A stretch of 49,894 nucleotides of DNA from Nanobdellota archaeon (lineage in GTDB: Archaea; Nanobdellota; Nanobdellia; Woesearchaeales; SKGA01). The stretch is from NCBI GenBank assembly GCA_051819745.1, contig JBNJGO010000002.1, positions 8,781-58,674 of the forward strand, written 5' to 3'. The notes beneath the pieces were generated by a model that saw only the letters and a program-made list of their open reading frames with translations, did not search any database and had not been told where the DNA came from. Numbering within the stretch: position 1 is the first letter of the stretch; the number at the start of each line of letters is the position of its first letter. Below are positions 41,645 to 47,876 of this stretch, one piece after another. The translations under genes were made by a program, and so were the position numbers.

Positions 41645-41732
41645 GTTTAACATCGAAGTTAAGGAGAGTTTCGACTGAAAGGAGGAATTCGGGCGGAGTC
41701 CGCAATACAGAAAAGTTAAATTCCTGTTAATT
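41645..41732 (+). repeat. 88-nt attC-like imperfect palindromic repeat (B1)
   Basis: GTTTAAC-ATCGAAGTTAAGGAGAG...AATTCGGGCGGAGTCCGCAA...AGTTAAATTCCT-GTTAATT; same length as 47789-47876, with about 62 of 88 positions identical in an ungapped hand alignment. Confidence 0.7.
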
Positions 41733-41860
41733 TCATCCGACCAAAGGGAAGACCTAAAATTTAGTGCAACGATGCCAAAGGCAAAAAAATAAAGTCATAA
41801 ATCCAGTTTATATACTATTAAAGAATACCTAAAAATAATATTAAAAAAAAAATAAAAAAA

Positions 41861-42508
41861 TTATTTATATTCAACATCAGCAGTAGATCTGAGTTCTTGA
41901 ATAAGAACACTTGTCGCTTCCTGCTGTTTTTGTTGCTCAAGTTGCGCAACAATTTGAGGTTTTAACTCTTCATATGAAGGCACACCATCAGGCGATTGCG
42001 TTTTATACGTTTCATAAAATTCTCGAGTTTCATCTTCAGTTACATTAAACGATTGACCTTCAAGTTGAGTTTCTAAATAGCTTTGAGTCGCCATTTGGTC
42101 TTTTATATTTTCTAACTCTTCCTCGTAAGAAGCTCCTTGCGATTCAATTTGTTGTTTGTAAGCATCCAAAGTCATATTTTGCAGGACAAGCTGTTGTTCA
42201 ATCACAGATTCTGCTTCTTCAGTCGCGACAACAATATTTTCTTGTTGAACTTTTTGTTCAAGCACTTTTTGATTTATCACCTGTTCAAGCACTTCTTCTT
42301 CCGAAACCTGTTGTCCTTGTTGTAAGAAAGATTCTTGAATTGTAGAAACTTCTTCAGATACAATCTCCTCACCATTGACTACGGCTACAACATCGCCAGT
42401 CATAGATTCAGCAGGTGCATCGTCTTCTAGTTCTGATGTACTGCATCCCACCATAAGAATAACAGATAGCACCAAAACAATTGTCATCATATTTTTTAGG
42501 TTTGCCAT
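41861..42508 (-). CDS. SurA-N-terminal-domain-like chaperone lipoprotein
   Basis: Start placed at MANLKNMMTIVLVLSVILMVGCS (lipobox MVGC); VAVVNGEEI..., a Glu/Gln-rich helical body reminiscent of SurA_N/PrsA N-terminal domains. Confidence 0.5.
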   Translation of the reverse strand: MANLKNMMTIVLVLSVILMVGCSTSELEDDAPAESMTGDVVAVVNGEEIVSEEVSTIQESFLQQGQQVSEEEVLEQVINQKVLEQKVQQENIVVATEEAESVIEQQLVLQNMTLDAYKQQIESQGASYEEELENIKDQMATQSYLETQLEGQSFNVTEDETREFYETYKTQSPDGVPSYEELKPQIVAQLEQQKQQEATSVLIQELRSTADVEYK

Positions 42509-42616
42509 TGTAGTAACCGAAAAAAAAACGGTTTTATTTAAATATTTCGGTAAGTTAAATTTTAATTCATATATTTTTATGTGTCCTTTTTTTGTATTTA
42601 GAGAATTTGGAATTGA

Positions 42617-42732
42617 AACTAACATCGGAATTTAACGAAGTTTTTTGCGAAGCAAAAAATTTGGGAGAGAAACGAATTTTGCTTGGCAAAATAGCGAAGC
42701 GGTCGTTTCGAACCCTTTAAGCCCTGTTAAAT
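42617..42732 (+). repeat. 116-nt attC-like repeat variant (C1)
   Basis: AACTAAC-ATCGGAATTTAACG ... CTTTAAGCCCT-GTTAAAT; internal perfect hairpins TTTTTTGC-gaa-GCAAAAAA (42641-42659) and ATTTTGC-ttg-GCAAAAT (42676-42692). Confidence 0.6.
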
Positions 42733-42798
42733 ACGTTTTCCGTTACGAACGAAGTGGAGTCCGGAAAACCTGCGTCCGCAGAGTTGTGTTTAAGTTCC

Positions 42799-42850
42799 AA
42801 TAAATATCGAGCGTAGCGAGTGTAACTGTCCGAAGGACTGGGGGGAGTTC
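42799..42850 (+). repeat. Third-type repeat (zeta) with GCGAGTGTA core and GTCC..GGAC hairpin
   Basis: AATAAATATCGAGCGTAGCGAGTGTAACTGTCCGAAGGACTGGGGGAGTTC aligns with 47696-47757; GGGGAGTTC recurs at 42891-42899 and 42944-42952. Confidence 0.55.
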
Positions 42851-42995
42851 GTTCCTTCAAGCACGAAGTGCCATAGAGAATAAGTATCGAGGGGAGTTCT
42901 TTTTTTATCAAAGCCGAAGGCTCTTTAAGTCAATACATCAAAGGGGGAGTTCCGTTCAACAAAAGCGAACAAAGTGAGCAATTCACTACATTATT

Positions 42996-45395: not shown

Positions 45396-45448
45396 TATAC
45401 TGATAAAATAGTAAAACATTTAAATAGTTTTTGTTATTTAAGATTAAT

Positions 45449-46246
45449 ATGTTATCTAGAATTAAAAGTTTTGCAAAGGATACTTGTTTTGAATTATGGT
45501 TTGATACAATTGAGCAGTTAAGTGATTCTAGAGGAATTCTTATTTTTTGTCATGGTTGTCCATCTCATCCGTACGATCATTCACCATCTTTAATTGAATA
45601 TTTATCTAAAGAAGAAAATTACTTACTTGTTTTTTTGCATTATAAGGGCACTTGGGAAAGTGGTGGTGTTTGTAACCTAGAAAATTCAGTTGAGAGTGTA
45701 ATCGATGTTTATAATTATTTAAAAGAAGGAGCAATTAAAGACATATTGCGAGATGAAGTGATAACTTTAAACCCAACGAAAGTAACTTTGATTGGAGCAA
45801 GTTTTGGCGGGAGTGTTGCTCTCGTATCCTCTGCAAAACTTAATGTAAAATCGGTTATTGCTTTAGCTCCTGTCATTGATTTTAAAAATCATAATAATAA
45901 AGGATTTGAAGAAAATTTAGATCAAACCTTTTTAAAAATAAATTTAGGTTGGAAAAATCTTTGGAGATTTACAGAATCTGATTGGAATAGATTAAAAAAT
46001 GGACTGCTAGATTTAAATTCGATAGAATATATTGACAAATTTGAAGACACGCAGTTTTTATTAGTTCATGGCAAAGAAGATAAATCAGTTGATTATAAAA
46101 AAAGTGTTAATTTTGTAAACATAATTAATAAAACAAGTACAAATAAAGCAGATATTTTATTATGTGAAAACCAAGGTCATTTTGGATTATTTGGTTTATC
46201 AGATTTAAAAGTTAAAAAAAAGGTTTTGGAATTTCTTAAGGGTTAG
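45449..46246 (+). CDS. Alpha/beta hydrolase (dienelactone hydrolase / S9-like)
   Basis: Nucleophile elbow LIGASFGGSVAL (GxSxG), LLVHGKEDKSVD, C-terminal GHFG; first ATG at 45449 (the ORF-track start is TTG). Confidence 0.7.
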   Translation: MLSRIKSFAKDTCFELWFDTIEQLSDSRGILIFCHGCPSHPYDHSPSLIEYLSKEENYLLVFLHYKGTWESGGVCNLENSVESVIDVYNYLKEGAIKDILRDEVITLNPTKVTLIGASFGGSVALVSSAKLNVKSVIALAPVIDFKNHNNKGFEENLDQTFLKINLGWKNLWRFTESDWNRLKNGLLDLNSIEYIDKFEDTQFLLVHGKEDKSVDYKKSVNFVNIINKTSTNKADILLCENQGHFGLFGLSDLKVKKKVLEFLKG

Positions 46247-47624
46247 GAGCTCTTTTAGCATATGCAGCAACATAACTATCTTCTTTACCGCATAAAACAC
46301 ACGATCTTTCATTTTTCTTATCTGTTTTTAATACTTTTCCTAATAATTCTCCAGGATATTTATCTTCCAGCGTTTTCCCACAAGATTCTTGCAAACAATG
46401 ATTAACTAATGCTACTTTATTATTATCTAAGATAGAATCAATTCCTGCTAATGAATTTGTTTGTATGAGATTTCCATTAAAAAATTCTTGAGATCTATAT
46501 CTTAAACTATTATCCACGTCATGTAAAATATTATCTAGATGACTTACAAAATAATCTATCGAACATTCAGTTCTATCCAACGTATCTCTTCTAGAATATA
46601 ATAAATTGTTATCGCTTGTCATAGTTACTCTAAGAGGAGTTCCATAAACAAGATGTTTTTTCAATCTTTTTTTTATATGTGAAGAATAATCTTCATCTAT
46701 TGAAATGCGATATTTTTTGAGTTTTTCTTTTAAATCTTCAACTTTACTTCTATCAGAAGAATCATTTGATATAATTGCTATTTGTGTAGGTGCTGTGGTT
46801 GAAGTAAAACAAAAACCATACGAATCTGCATGATGTTCAAGTAGCCCTAATAGAAATCGTTCTCCAAATCCAAACCCTACTTGTTTTGCATATTCATTTC
46901 TGCCATCTTTATCTTTTCTTCTAACTTTAAATATTCGAGAAAATCTTTCGTGATGTTTGTAGGTTGTTCCAATTCTCACCATACCTTTTAATGAGGGAAT
47001 TAAAGTTTGAAGTGAGGTAACTTCTTTTGCAACAGGTTTATTTCCCCACATAGATTGATCTATCTCTAAATAAGACAAATTTAATCCATCAAAAAAAGTT
47101 TTTAATATGTCTATTGATCTAGTAAATGCGTTGTTTAATGATTCTTCATCCCATACTAATGAATACGATTCAATAATTCCAGAGTGCTCTTCTTGTCTTA
47201 AGAAGGGAACTCCTCCAGTTACAGGTCTAAATAAATGTTCCTTTAGGTAGATATTCGTAGGAATCATATTTGGATTTTGCTTTACTTTTTTCGATAAAAA
47301 GTGGTTTAAAACAGGGTCGCTTGTTGAATTCAGATATCGTTTCTCTCTATCTCTGCCTTCATTATCATTTAACCAATAAACACCATTACGGAAGTCAAAG
47401 AAATCTTCTGCAACTTTATCTAAAGTCGTACTTGAAACAATTCTAGGTAATTGCATTTCTTCAAAACCAGCTAATTCAAGGATTTCGTAGAATTGTTTGT
47501 AAACTAAATTTTTCCATTTCATCCCTCTTGGTAACCATACAAGTCCTCCTCCAGGAAAAAGTGAGTCTTCTAAACTGACTAATTCTGTTTTTTCCATTAA
47601 TTTTAACGTTTCTTCAAGCGACAT
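46236..47624 (-). CDS. Divergent class II aminoacyl-tRNA synthetase homolog, archaeal/eukaryal ProRS-like
   Basis: 462 aa; collinear with archaeal-type ProRS as I remember it: GGLVWLPRGMKWKNL...GFEEMQLP, VYWLNDNEG...LNSTSDP, motif-2 region FRPVTGGVPFLRQEEH (lacks the usual FR.E), motif-3 GFGFGERFLLGLLEHHAD, anticodon-domain APTQIAIISN, C-terminal Cys pairs. Confidence 0.65.
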   Translation of the reverse strand: MSLEETLKLMEKTELVSLEDSLFPGGGLVWLPRGMKWKNLVYKQFYEILELAGFEEMQLPRIVSSTTLDKVAEDFFDFRNGVYWLNDNEGRDREKRYLNSTSDPVLNHFLSKKVKQNPNMIPTNIYLKEHLFRPVTGGVPFLRQEEHSGIIESYSLVWDEESLNNAFTRSIDILKTFFDGLNLSYLEIDQSMWGNKPVAKEVTSLQTLIPSLKGMVRIGTTYKHHERFSRIFKVRRKDKDGRNEYAKQVGFGFGERFLLGLLEHHADSYGFCFTSTTAPTQIAIISNDSSDRSKVEDLKEKLKKYRISIDEDYSSHIKKRLKKHLVYGTPLRVTMTSDNNLLYSRRDTLDRTECSIDYFVSHLDNILHDVDNSLRYRSQEFFNGNLIQTNSLAGIDSILDNNKVALVNHCLQESCGKTLEDKYPGELLGKVLKTDKKNERSCVLCGKEDSYVAAYAKRAPNP

Positions 47625-47695
47625 ATTATGTGAAAAAGAATAAGTATATTTAAATGTTTTTATTGATACTACTTATTAGTAGATTAATTTTTGTT

Positions 47696-47757
47696 AATAT
47701 AAATGTTCGAGCAACAAAGTTGCGAGTGTAGATGTCCGTGAGGACTAGGAACTCCCC
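47696..47757 (+). repeat. Third-type repeat (zeta), second copy
   Basis: AATATAAATGTTCGAGC...GCGAGTGTAGATGTCCGTGAGGACTAGGAACTCCCC; the terminal GGAACTCCCC is the reverse complement of the GGGGAGTTCC found in the 42.8-kb copy. Confidence 0.55.
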
Positions 47758-47788
47758 AAACCAAAAAAAGAAATGGAAATTTTATTGT

Positions 47789-47876
47789 ATTTAACATCGG
47801 GCTTAAGGAGAGTTTTCAACGCAGTTGAAAATTCGGGCGGAGTCTGCAAGACGGAGCTCTTTAAGCCCTGTTAAGT
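47789..47876 (+). repeat. 88-nt attC-like imperfect palindromic repeat (D1)
   Basis: ATTTAAC-A-TC-GGGCTTAAGGAG...TTTTCAAC-gca-GTTGAAAA...AATTCGGGCGGAGTCTGCAA...CTCTTTAAGCCC-T-GTTAAGT. The arms pair over about 19-20 positions including G:T, with T9/C10 bulged. Confidence 0.7.

Follow-up and report, generated by a model that had tools for sequence, protein, structure and literature searches.

The integron integrase IntI is a relative of the Xer recombinases. Integrons have been documented in archaea, Nanoarchaeota included (PMC9668308), and reviews of Xer systems and of archaeal tyrosine recombinases place integrative mobile elements exploiting Xer (IMEX) in bacteria only (PMC5357621 among them). 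For the archaeal recombinase XerA, the validated dif site of P. abyssi reads ATTGGATATAA-TCGGCC-TTATATCTAAA. Here we analyze a family of structured repeats represented by three copies, B1, C1, and D1, in a 49,894-nucleotide stretch of DNA from a Nanobdellota archaeon (GenBank assembly GCA_051819745.1, contig JBNJGO010000002.1, positions 8,781 to 58,674 of the forward strand), which we call the window. We think it probable that each repeat forms the folded core of a recombination site marking the edge of a gene cassette in an array, and that these sites are served by the chromosomal XerA/dif system in DNA of the Woesearchaeota/Pacearchaeota type. The window itself is best read as holding three cassette boundaries of a platform that would be integron-like or IMEX-like. 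Support is comparative throughout and comes from a conserved structure, a strand asymmetry, similarity to one arm of dif, linkage and polarity with respect to xerA, and one insertion or deletion (indel) between related loci.

An exact scan with the central 19-mer of the repeat returned 10 true homologs in species-representative genomes and more in metagenomes, and the family now stands at 63 nonredundant copies on about 25 low-GC DPANN-type contigs. The homologous contigs (numbered with the prefix L) are labeled Woesearchaeota, Nanoarchaeota, or Pacearchaeota, and the GC content of the stretches is ~27 to 39%, with the 8-kb stretch of L001 at 54%. Two scan matches, in L005 and L008, were set aside as chance, as on alignment they lacked the flanking arms of the element. 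A covariance model (R1) was built from 12 copies, and the scan with it, which had been proposed in a preliminary description of the window, revealed many diverged copies beside every seed, always on the same strand: nine in 5.3 kb in L003, five in L012, three in L004, and five in L035. Same-strand arrays of six copies each were also found by R1 in L040 and L042. The model had no match in L013, L017 to L019, L021 to L022, L024 to L026, L028 to L030, L033, or L037, several of which are near-identical to L005 or to each other. Some members of the collection (L003, L006, L009, L011, L012, and the protein P0001) bear implausible labels, namely, Methanosarcinales, Moraniibacteriota, and Thermotogota; these contigs, which carry a family of DPANN type, have 30 to 39% GC, and their gene content suggests that they may be mis-binned.

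The fold is conserved in a way that the sequence of its arms is not. Across 47 distinct copies, in an alignment that was fitted to the model and somewhat favors the structure, 22 of 30 pairs change on both sides, and 95.9% of cells pair in a three-way junction; none of 500 shuffles reached the observed values, and slid controls were 30 to 56% paired. Several arm types can be seen by eye to be complementary (GGGCTTAAGGAG/CTCTTTAAGCCC, AGGATTATGTA/TACATAATCCT, GCGATTAAGAGA/TCTCTTAATCGC, and CCGTGTATGAG/CTCATACACGG); sequence itself hardly varies in the outer helix (AACA/TGTT) and at the TT of the inner arm. With compensatory changes preserving 22 of the 30 pairs in diverged copies, selection acts on the fold itself, and the early proposal that the arms are selected for pairing rather than for sequence is upheld by covariation across the family.

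The selected fold is that of the + strand. Paired columns contain 123 G·T cells compared with 13 A·C cells, and in the regions comprising element and tail the + strand has 259 CGNAG pentamers to 14 on the - strand and 82 perfect C(GNA)G mini-hairpins to none. C(GNA)G triloops are classic hyper-stable DNA mini-hairpins, and their prevalence points to folded single-stranded DNA over RNA. The conserved unit is also longer than the 88 nt first described, a length that is right for B1 and D1. Directly before the model start lies ATTGM, of which ATT at positions -5 to -3 is kept in 85 to 94% and the G at -2 in 65% of 44 copies, and downstream follow families of structured tails 45 to 150 nt long. 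One such tail runs CCCGA, hairpin, GAGAG, C-CTGCAAG-G, CGTGGG, and a further module contains ..GTCC-GAA-GGAC-GAGGGGGAGTC. RNAalifold on a MAFFT alignment of tails recovered the CTGCAAG hairpin alone, a result limited by misalignment of the variable hairpin.

The 5' end of the element, ATTGM-RTWTAA|CATC, resembles dif: ATTGMRTWTAA agrees with the P. abyssi left arm ATTGGATATAA at 10 of 11 positions. Some 100 to 160 nt upstream of xerA, a canonical dif-like site of 11-6-11 layout is readable in most of the xerA contexts compared below. That of L043, ATTGAATATAA-CATCTA-TTATATCTACT, shares 19 of 22 arm positions with P. abyssi dif, and others are ATTCGACTTAA-CACCTA-TTATGTCTAGT in L011, ATTTTTCTTAA-CATGTA-TTATGTCTACT in L042, and ATTTCATTTAA-CATCTA-TTAAGTCTACT in L048. 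What the elements and the xerA-side site have in common is the left arm and the start of the spacer, CAYC. In the duplex, the arms within the 5' half of an element are 8 nt apart; in the fold, six paired positions (C, A, G, G, G, C), not counting two bulged bases, separate the TAA of the outer arm from the invariant TTA of the inner arm. A dif-like geometry would therefore be attained only in the fold, and only on the + strand, with the 2-nt bulge absorbing the 8-nt spacing, which would account for the bulge singled out in the preliminary description. The idea put forward there, that a bulge marks one folded strand, is supported as the best reading.

Linkage to a recombinase gene is the next strand of evidence. 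Among 93 open reading frames (ORFs) neighboring the repeats, the commonest Pfam family was Phage_integrase with Phage_int_SAM_4, in proteins of ~275 aa (269 to 278 aa for the linked recombinases) carried by L011, L012, and L036. Against the NCBIfam equivalog recomb_XerA_Arch (cutoff, 220 bits) they scored 219 to 230 bits, so that three of four tested pass and P0013 (219.3 bits) falls just under, and among solved structures P. abyssi XerA is closest to them (E = 6e-48). Homologs of ~275 aa number more than 7,000, with thousands of orthologs at 55 to 62% identity. We compared 11 xerA contexts, among them three element-bearing loci, six fetched by homology without regard to repeats, and L039, which lies on the same contig as the element-bearing L001 and hence was not an independent choice. 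Nine of the 11 contained copies, and in a search covering ~66 kb on each side in total, 27 copies lay upstream of xerA, all co-oriented with it, and none downstream; L040 and L042 each have six copies within the 7 kb before xerA. In L012, xerA (3091-3935), beside the five-copy array, is split by a frameshift near 3600, which is either an assembly error or a pseudogene. L039 (JAFGNA010000011.1, 1788-15154; Woesearchaeota) has its elements and xerA/dif among genes for Cdc6/Orc1, both PolD subunits, TBP, and MCM. Given these replication genes, the module there lies near a probable origin and not a terminus, and the folded strand would be the template of the lagging strand if replication starts beside cdc6.

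One pair of loci differs by a whole unit. L004 and L014 are 98% identical and set apart by a single 749-bp segment whose junction is confined to a shared ATATAAC: L014 matches the upstream flank of L004 through ATATAAC and the downstream copy of L004 from ATATAAC onward. This heptamer is the end of the left arm, at the boundary between arm and spacer, and the 749-bp unit consists of a site body, its tail, an ORF of 180 aa on the other strand, ~60 nt of promoter space, and the next left arm. An indel of this kind is expected if a cassette circle and a dif-type site recombine at TAA|C; repeated beside a regenerated dif, the reaction would yield a co-oriented array on one side, as observed. All-against-all comparison yielded L004/L014 as the one closely related pair of element-bearing loci, and no second. 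The genes between sites are accessory in type and include restriction-modification, ParE toxins, NUDIX hydrolases, methyltransferases, a lipase, and small hypothetical proteins. Beside the arrays lie a complete restriction-modification system of two methylases and an AlwI-type endonuclease (L043:6357-9760) and ParE/DUF7557 toxin-antitoxin pairs (L042:1741-2230, L048:6613-7102, and L010:1608-2097), units that are typical cargo of mobile or defense islands.

These data support a model in which a site, read 5' to 3' on the + strand, would comprise an XerA-type arm ATTGM-RTWTAA, a spacer starting CATC, a covarying arm with the invariant TTA, a three-way junction with C(GNA)G-triloop hairpins, the complementary arm, TGTTA, and the structured tail. 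Once single-stranded, the + strand would fold, and the folded stem would mimic the core of dif, with a TAA arm, six paired spacer positions, and a TTA arm, the bulged TC taking up the excess. XerA, the presumed catalyst acting on this single-stranded substrate, would swap a strand at TAA|C, with the site on a cassette circle as one partner and the canonical duplex dif-like site that precedes xerA as the other. The cassette would go in next to dif, its left arm would rebuild dif, and repeated insertion would build a co-oriented array that grows on one side of dif only. The conserved junction and the tails possibly bind an accessory protein or nucleate the fold.

The window has 34% GC, and B1, C1, and D1 all sit in GC-rich intergenic islands, with 0.97 kb between B1 and C1 and 5.2 kb between C1 and D1. 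Its archaeal origin is evident from a tRNA gene with a 40-nt intron (39652-39762, - strand; Rfam 53.5 bits, ARAGORN negative), which adjoins the left side of the cluster of elements and accessory-type genes. D1 (47789-47876, + strand) is an intact site of what we call the Q type, scoring 109 bits with model R1 and sharing 87 to 89% identity with copies on other contigs. Its left arm, ATTGTATTTAA (47784-47794, + strand), is an XerA-type 11-bp half-site that agrees with the P. abyssi dif left arm at 9 of 11 positions, and we place the probable crossover point at its 3' edge, TAA|C. The layout is an outer stem TTAACA/TGTTAA, the TC bulge, a 12-bp arm, and a three-way junction bearing a GCA-triloop hairpin, which is the variable one, and the hairpin GTC-TGCAA-GAC. 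Refolding reproduced the structure drawn earlier for D1, with an 8-bp outer stem, T9 and C10 bulged, and a 12-bp stem containing one G·T; its folding energy is -35.7 kcal/mol (z = -4.9) with RNA parameters and -18.4 (z = -4.6) with DNA parameters. The D1 tail, termed module 2 (47877-47958, + strand), runs CGCCCCGA, a variable hairpin, GAGAG, GCC-TGCAA-GGC, ATGGGTCG, a second hairpin, and GAAGAAGT. It is kept in L010, L011, L039, L032, L035, and L003, where the variable hairpin shows compensating changes.

B1 (41645-41732, + strand; 76 bits) is a decayed hybrid that combines a Q-like 5' arm and a Q core with a 3' arm of a second type, P (GTTAAATTCC). A recount agrees that B1 and D1 are each 88 nt long and identical at 62 of 88 positions without gaps. 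Within the window the 20-mer AATTCGGGCGGAGTCYGCAA occurs in B1 and D1 only (shuffles predict no matches), the B1 core being this 20-mer with one C/T change. First described as invariant, the block is so within the Q-type subtype; elsewhere only AAATTYGGR..GR and the CTGCAAG loop are kept. B1 folds poorly (z = -0.36 with RNA and -0.87 with DNA parameters) because its two arms belong to different types, and the AA:TT substitution that had been taken for a compensatory change is better read as the mark of a hybrid between two site types. The left arm of B1, ATTACGTTTAA (41640-41650, + strand), shares 7 of 11 positions with the P. abyssi left arm. Its 3' arm with the adjoining TGTTAATT matches the 3' ends of L035:3870 and L020:6568, and its tail (41733-41800, + strand), beginning TCATCCGACCAAAGGGAAGACCTAAAATTTAGTGCAACGATGCCAAAGGC.., is 92% identical to L002:3-38 over 41760-41795; the same tail family follows copies at L035:2252, L035:4389, L043:6052, L040:5782, and L041:5659. 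A truncated copy at 40885-40985 (+ strand), of which the 3' arm, TGTTAATT, and tail are left (..GAGAGCGCAGCGTGGTCG..GGAGAAGTTGAATAAAAGAG), also aligns with this tail family.

C1 (42617-42732, + strand) is a 116-nt hybrid, as the preliminary description had suggested: its 5' arm GGAATTTAAC is the exact complement of the B1 3' arm, and its 3' arm is of the D1 type. In the family-wide classification its 5' arm (GGAATTTAACG) is P-type and its 3' arm (CCCTTTAAGCCC) Q-type; between them lie a hairpin with a GAA triloop and a second, enlarged hairpin. It is a genuine if divergent family member (50 bits with R1) and a weaker folder than D1. The C1 left arm, ATTGAAACTAA (42612-42622, + strand), shares 8 of 11 positions with the P. 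abyssi left arm. The left flank and arm (42596-42628) are 97% identical to L009:1-33, where a Q-type body comes next, so that different bodies sit behind one and the same arm. The C1 tail (42733-42990, + strand) is a GC-rich run of small hairpins that includes module 3 at 42800-42853 (..CGAGCGTAGCGAG..GTCCGAAGGACTGGGGGGAGTTC); the stretch 42799-42848 has 84% identity to L003:5408-5457, and module 3 also trails copies in L003, L004, L010, and L006. A small ORF considered in module 3 was rejected, as its ATG is not kept and a hairpin covaries instead.

Hairpins of the module 3 type also stand upstream of D1 (47706-47757, + strand), where they read CGAGCAACAAAGTTGCGAG, GTCC-GTGA-GGAC, and GGAACTCCCC; the same motif is found 45 to 55 nt upstream of copies in L035 and L020. 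The sequence GGGGAGTTC has three direct occurrences after C1 (42840-42950) and one inverted occurrence before D1 (47750-47757). In relatives (L003:5440-5500, L035, and L010), a covarying GTCC-loop-GGAC hairpin and G-run are followed by a T-run/A-run palindrome, TTTCTTTTTTAAAAGAAA, an arrangement suggestive of bidirectional termination. The dyad with its G-string also recalls archaeal origin-recognition boxes.

By analogy with the 749-bp indel of L004/L014, three cassettes can be outlined in the window. Cassette 1 (41651-42622, 972 bp) would contain the B1 body and tail, a gene identified by Pfam as encoding a SurA-like lipoprotein (41861-42508, - strand), a promoter region, and the C1 left arm; the junction of its circle would read ..GGAATTGAAACTAA|CATCGAAGTTAAGGAG... 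Cassette 2 (42623-47794, 5.2 kb) would extend from the C1 body and tail through the D1 left arm and hold an ABC transporter operon (42996-45419, - strand), an alpha/beta hydrolase gene (45431-46246, + strand), and a ProRS-like gene (46236-47624, - strand), which matches Pfam only weakly by the standard of a housekeeping synthetase (tRNA-synt_2b, E = 2e-8; ProRS-C_1, E = 1e-6). Of a putative cassette 3 the window would hold the start (47795-49894), with the D1 body and tail, a TrmB-like gene (48017-48760, - strand), and an ORF at 48871-49830 (+ strand). Look-ups by exact protein for the last two genes of the window returned no record of either. In L048 the order is TrmB (- strand), an ORF (+ strand), the dif-like site, and xerA. 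The remaining genes of L048 match those of L010, where a Q-type copy immediately precedes the TrmB gene. By this analogy, dif and xerA would be expected just past the end of the window, which may break off slightly before them. In several unrelated contigs a TrmB-like gene lies convergent with, and 124 to 140 nt beyond, the best-conserved Q-type copies (L010:5525-, L016:578-1324, L032:96-815, and L003:3404-4102, in addition to the gene in the window); this regulator might be an accessory factor or simply a conserved neighbor of xerA.

B1 and C1 are not the only mixed sites. Further hybrids occur at L041:5659, L041:6435, L040:3397, and L042:8643, alongside self-complementary P-type copies (L040:3902, L040:4863, and L038:2315), and across the family hairpin bodies combine freely with tail types. 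Exchanges must therefore also happen inside the conserved center, and these could be site-specific or homologous. An apex-crossover model, in which every site is a hybrid of neighboring cassettes, was rejected as a general rule because most copies in L003 and L012 are self-complementary.

Several observations weigh against sites served by XerA. The hybrids are themselves one of them, as a single crossover at TAA|C cannot make hybrid arms or mix bodies with tails, and a second process is needed. By nearest-neighbor DNA energies both strands fold almost equally well, and no role is assigned to the conserved junction, the CTGCAAG loop, or the tails. The match to the right arm of dif is weak, with only TTA.....AGT kept in the inner arm, and the dif-like candidates of L039 and L041 score no better than background. 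The recombinase looks like a housekeeping XerA, so its proximity could mean a conserved neighborhood and not a function. Two xerA contexts have no copies: L047 offers 432 nt of upstream sequence only, and L048, with a full 10 kb upstream of xerA, contains a decayed remnant only. Neither xerA nor a canonical dif-like site lies inside the window, and for its copies the XerA link rests on related contigs. Mobility is represented by one strain-level indel, whose 7-nt junction could in principle come from microhomology. Finally, gene orientation relative to the sites is not fixed, and cassette 2, with its ProRS-like gene, is large.

A rival account sees inert or regulatory intergenic repeats, whether comparable to miniature inverted-repeat transposable elements (MITEs) or repetitive extragenic palindromes or left as relics of insertion, that bear terminators or insulators and are shuffled by homologous recombination with no present XerA activity. 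Decayed, truncated, or hybrid copies are many (B1, the remnant at 40885-40985, and that of L048), the T-run/A-run after module 3 is terminator-like, hybrid arms are what recombination within the conserved center would produce, and copies also occur between large, ordinary genes. We nevertheless regard this account as unlikely, given the compensatory changes that hold the fold in 22 of 30 pairs and an indel junction that coincides exactly with the recombinase core. At the outset, a generic MITE flanked by target-site duplications had been raised; no duplications were seen, the flanks have the conserved ATTGM half-site, and the strict co-orientation within arrays, with no copy downstream of xerA, is unlike a freely transposing MITE.

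A structured noncoding RNA family transcribed from the + strand, its proximity to xerA incidental, is disfavored, and we give it only a slim chance. The junction, the CUGCAAG loop, and the tails would then be RNA motifs, perhaps protein bound. Selection of the fold on one strand, with many G·U-compatible pairs, and sequence conservation in the junction and loop suit this explanation, as do GC-rich islands within an AT-rich genome, which are usual for stable RNAs, and T-runs after module 3 at several loci. TATA-like boxes ~25 to 30 nt upstream of some copies fit the divergent neighboring genes equally well. Rfam 15 at gathering thresholds found one tRNA only in the whole window, and at E values up to 10 the region 41500-48100 yielded chance-level hits and no family match for the repeats. 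An RNA also sits poorly with the crowding of up to nine diverged paralogs into 5 kb, where unrelated genes of both orientations intervene, with decayed and hybrid copies being common, and with loops that are overwhelmingly C(GNA)G triloops, a hallmark of DNA mini-hairpins. Moreover, the 5' end of the element is a dif half-site, the arrays keep strict polarity and end at the dif-like site before xerA, and the junction of the cassette indel falls at the core.

Likeness to attC sites, raised in the preliminary description on account of the bulged bases, holds in part. Arrays are co-oriented, there is mostly one gene per gap, and a tyrosine recombinase is adjacent; the sites are not canonical attC sites. 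AAC and GTT are nearly invariant (43 to 47 of 47 copies) within a 5' consensus RTWTAAC and a 3' consensus GTTA(A/T/G)NN; these ends pair with each other as attC core sites (RYYYAAC/GTTRRRY) do, with a purine/pyrimidine pattern that fits in part only, as in ATTTAAC ... GTTAAGT. L003, L012, L004, L035, L040, and L042 each have at least two co-oriented sites less than 4 kb apart, as in an attC cluster. The unpaired central spacer of attC is absent, however; all six spacer positions pair, with a single TC bulge after the outer stem. As a proxy we built an attC model (R2) from seven experimentally used attCs, taken from the assays in PMC9668308, an earlier alignment of 10 attCs having been discarded for poorly aligned 3' arms. 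This model is weaker than IntegronFinder's own and was run with filters off, since with default filters it found only the control attC nearest the training set. R2 recovered four of four control attCs in the class 1 integron L046 (60.5, 20.8, 19.2, and 10.5 bits; three at E < 0.03 and the weakest at E = 5.6) and none of ~23 copies in the window, L003, L012, and L040 at E values up to 10. The linked recombinases do not have the IntI-specific insertion: they match TIGR02249 in two stretches at 181 to 208 bits (cutoff, 265) and NF011946 at 123 to 134 bits (cutoff, 435), and the match of a linked recombinase to the IntI4 structure is likewise split in two.

Ordinary attC sites in a cluster lacking an integrase (CALIN), recombined by an IntI encoded elsewhere, are thus very improbable, for although imperfect palindromes in co-oriented arrays with loosely fitting ends and the record of archaeal integrons speak for them, R2 misses every copy, the spacer is paired, the apical structure is conserved, the bulge is on the arm opposite the extrahelical bases of attC (judged from the aadA7 sequence), the sole linked recombinase falls below the IntI cutoffs, and the family motifs were not found in the supplementary sequences of PMC9668308 (Ghaly et al. 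2022).

A search of the literature returned no report of cassette arrays served by XerA, and reviews mention xerA/dif modules without them. We tentatively propose, at somewhat less than an even chance, that the arrays are a previously unrecognized gene-capture platform of DPANN archaea of the Woese-/Pacearchaeota type, in which the housekeeping XerA with its chromosomal dif takes the part of IntI/attI and complex single-stranded folded mimics of dif that of attC. If true, this would be a working integron analogue resting directly on Xer/dif and the first instance in archaea of mobile elements that exploit Xer; it would also offer a plausible model of the origin of integrons from Xer recombination, a question for which the family offers a concrete set of substrates in the folded site, the dif-like site, and XerA. 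Cassette capture through folded sites would not be tied to the integron integrase, as an ordinary chromosome-resolution enzyme could run it. It would also provide a route of gene exchange in symbionts with tiny genomes, whose arrays hold restriction-modification, toxin, surface-protein, and transporter genes. Integron-finding software would probably miss such arrays, as the proxy attC model missed all copies.

The proposed sites served by XerA can be set beside several described systems. With P. abyssi XerA/dif they share the recombinase family, a left arm identical at 10 of 11 positions, and dif-like sites agreeing at up to 19 of 22 arm positions. In archaeal Xer/dif, however, dif is a single duplex site per chromosome, not beside xerA in Thermococcales, whereas here dozens of hairpin-forming derivatives gather beside the xerA/dif module. 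The pdif modules of Acinetobacter plasmids are likewise gene modules bounded by Xer sites and shuffled between replicons, but their sites are plain 28-bp duplexes, unfolded and alternating in orientation, and are not known to form a polar array by a recombinase gene. In the attP(+) of CTX phage, one strand carries two inverted dif-like halves that form a hairpin mimicking dif. The repeats would resemble it in this and in the use of the host Xer and dif, and their homology to dif is likewise limited to one arm and the adjacent part of the spacer.

In IMEX, for which our comparison draws in part on a review (PMC5357621), integration rebuilds dif and elements stack in tandem beside it, as proposed here. 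The differences are an archaeal host, a single XerA in place of XerC/D, many diverged site types per array, and gene cassettes of 0.7 to 5 kb without phage or replication genes. Compared with integrons, the recombinase here is an XerA equivalog lacking the IntI insertion, located at the downstream end of the array and co-oriented with it, whereas IntI is upstream and divergent. Within the site, the spacer pairs except for a single 2-nt bulge in the 5' arm, and the apex forms a conserved three-way junction with a structured tail after it. Genes occur in both orientations and have promoter space of their own, and the attC model misses the sites. Shared with integrons are co-oriented arrays in which imperfect-palindrome sites mostly enclose a single accessory gene, an outer box of conserved sequence (xTAAC/GTTAx) with covarying inner arms, selection for the fold of one strand, and an asymmetry due to extra bases on one arm; the cassette boundary also falls inside the outer core, and a canonical duplex site beside the recombinase gene plays the part of attI.

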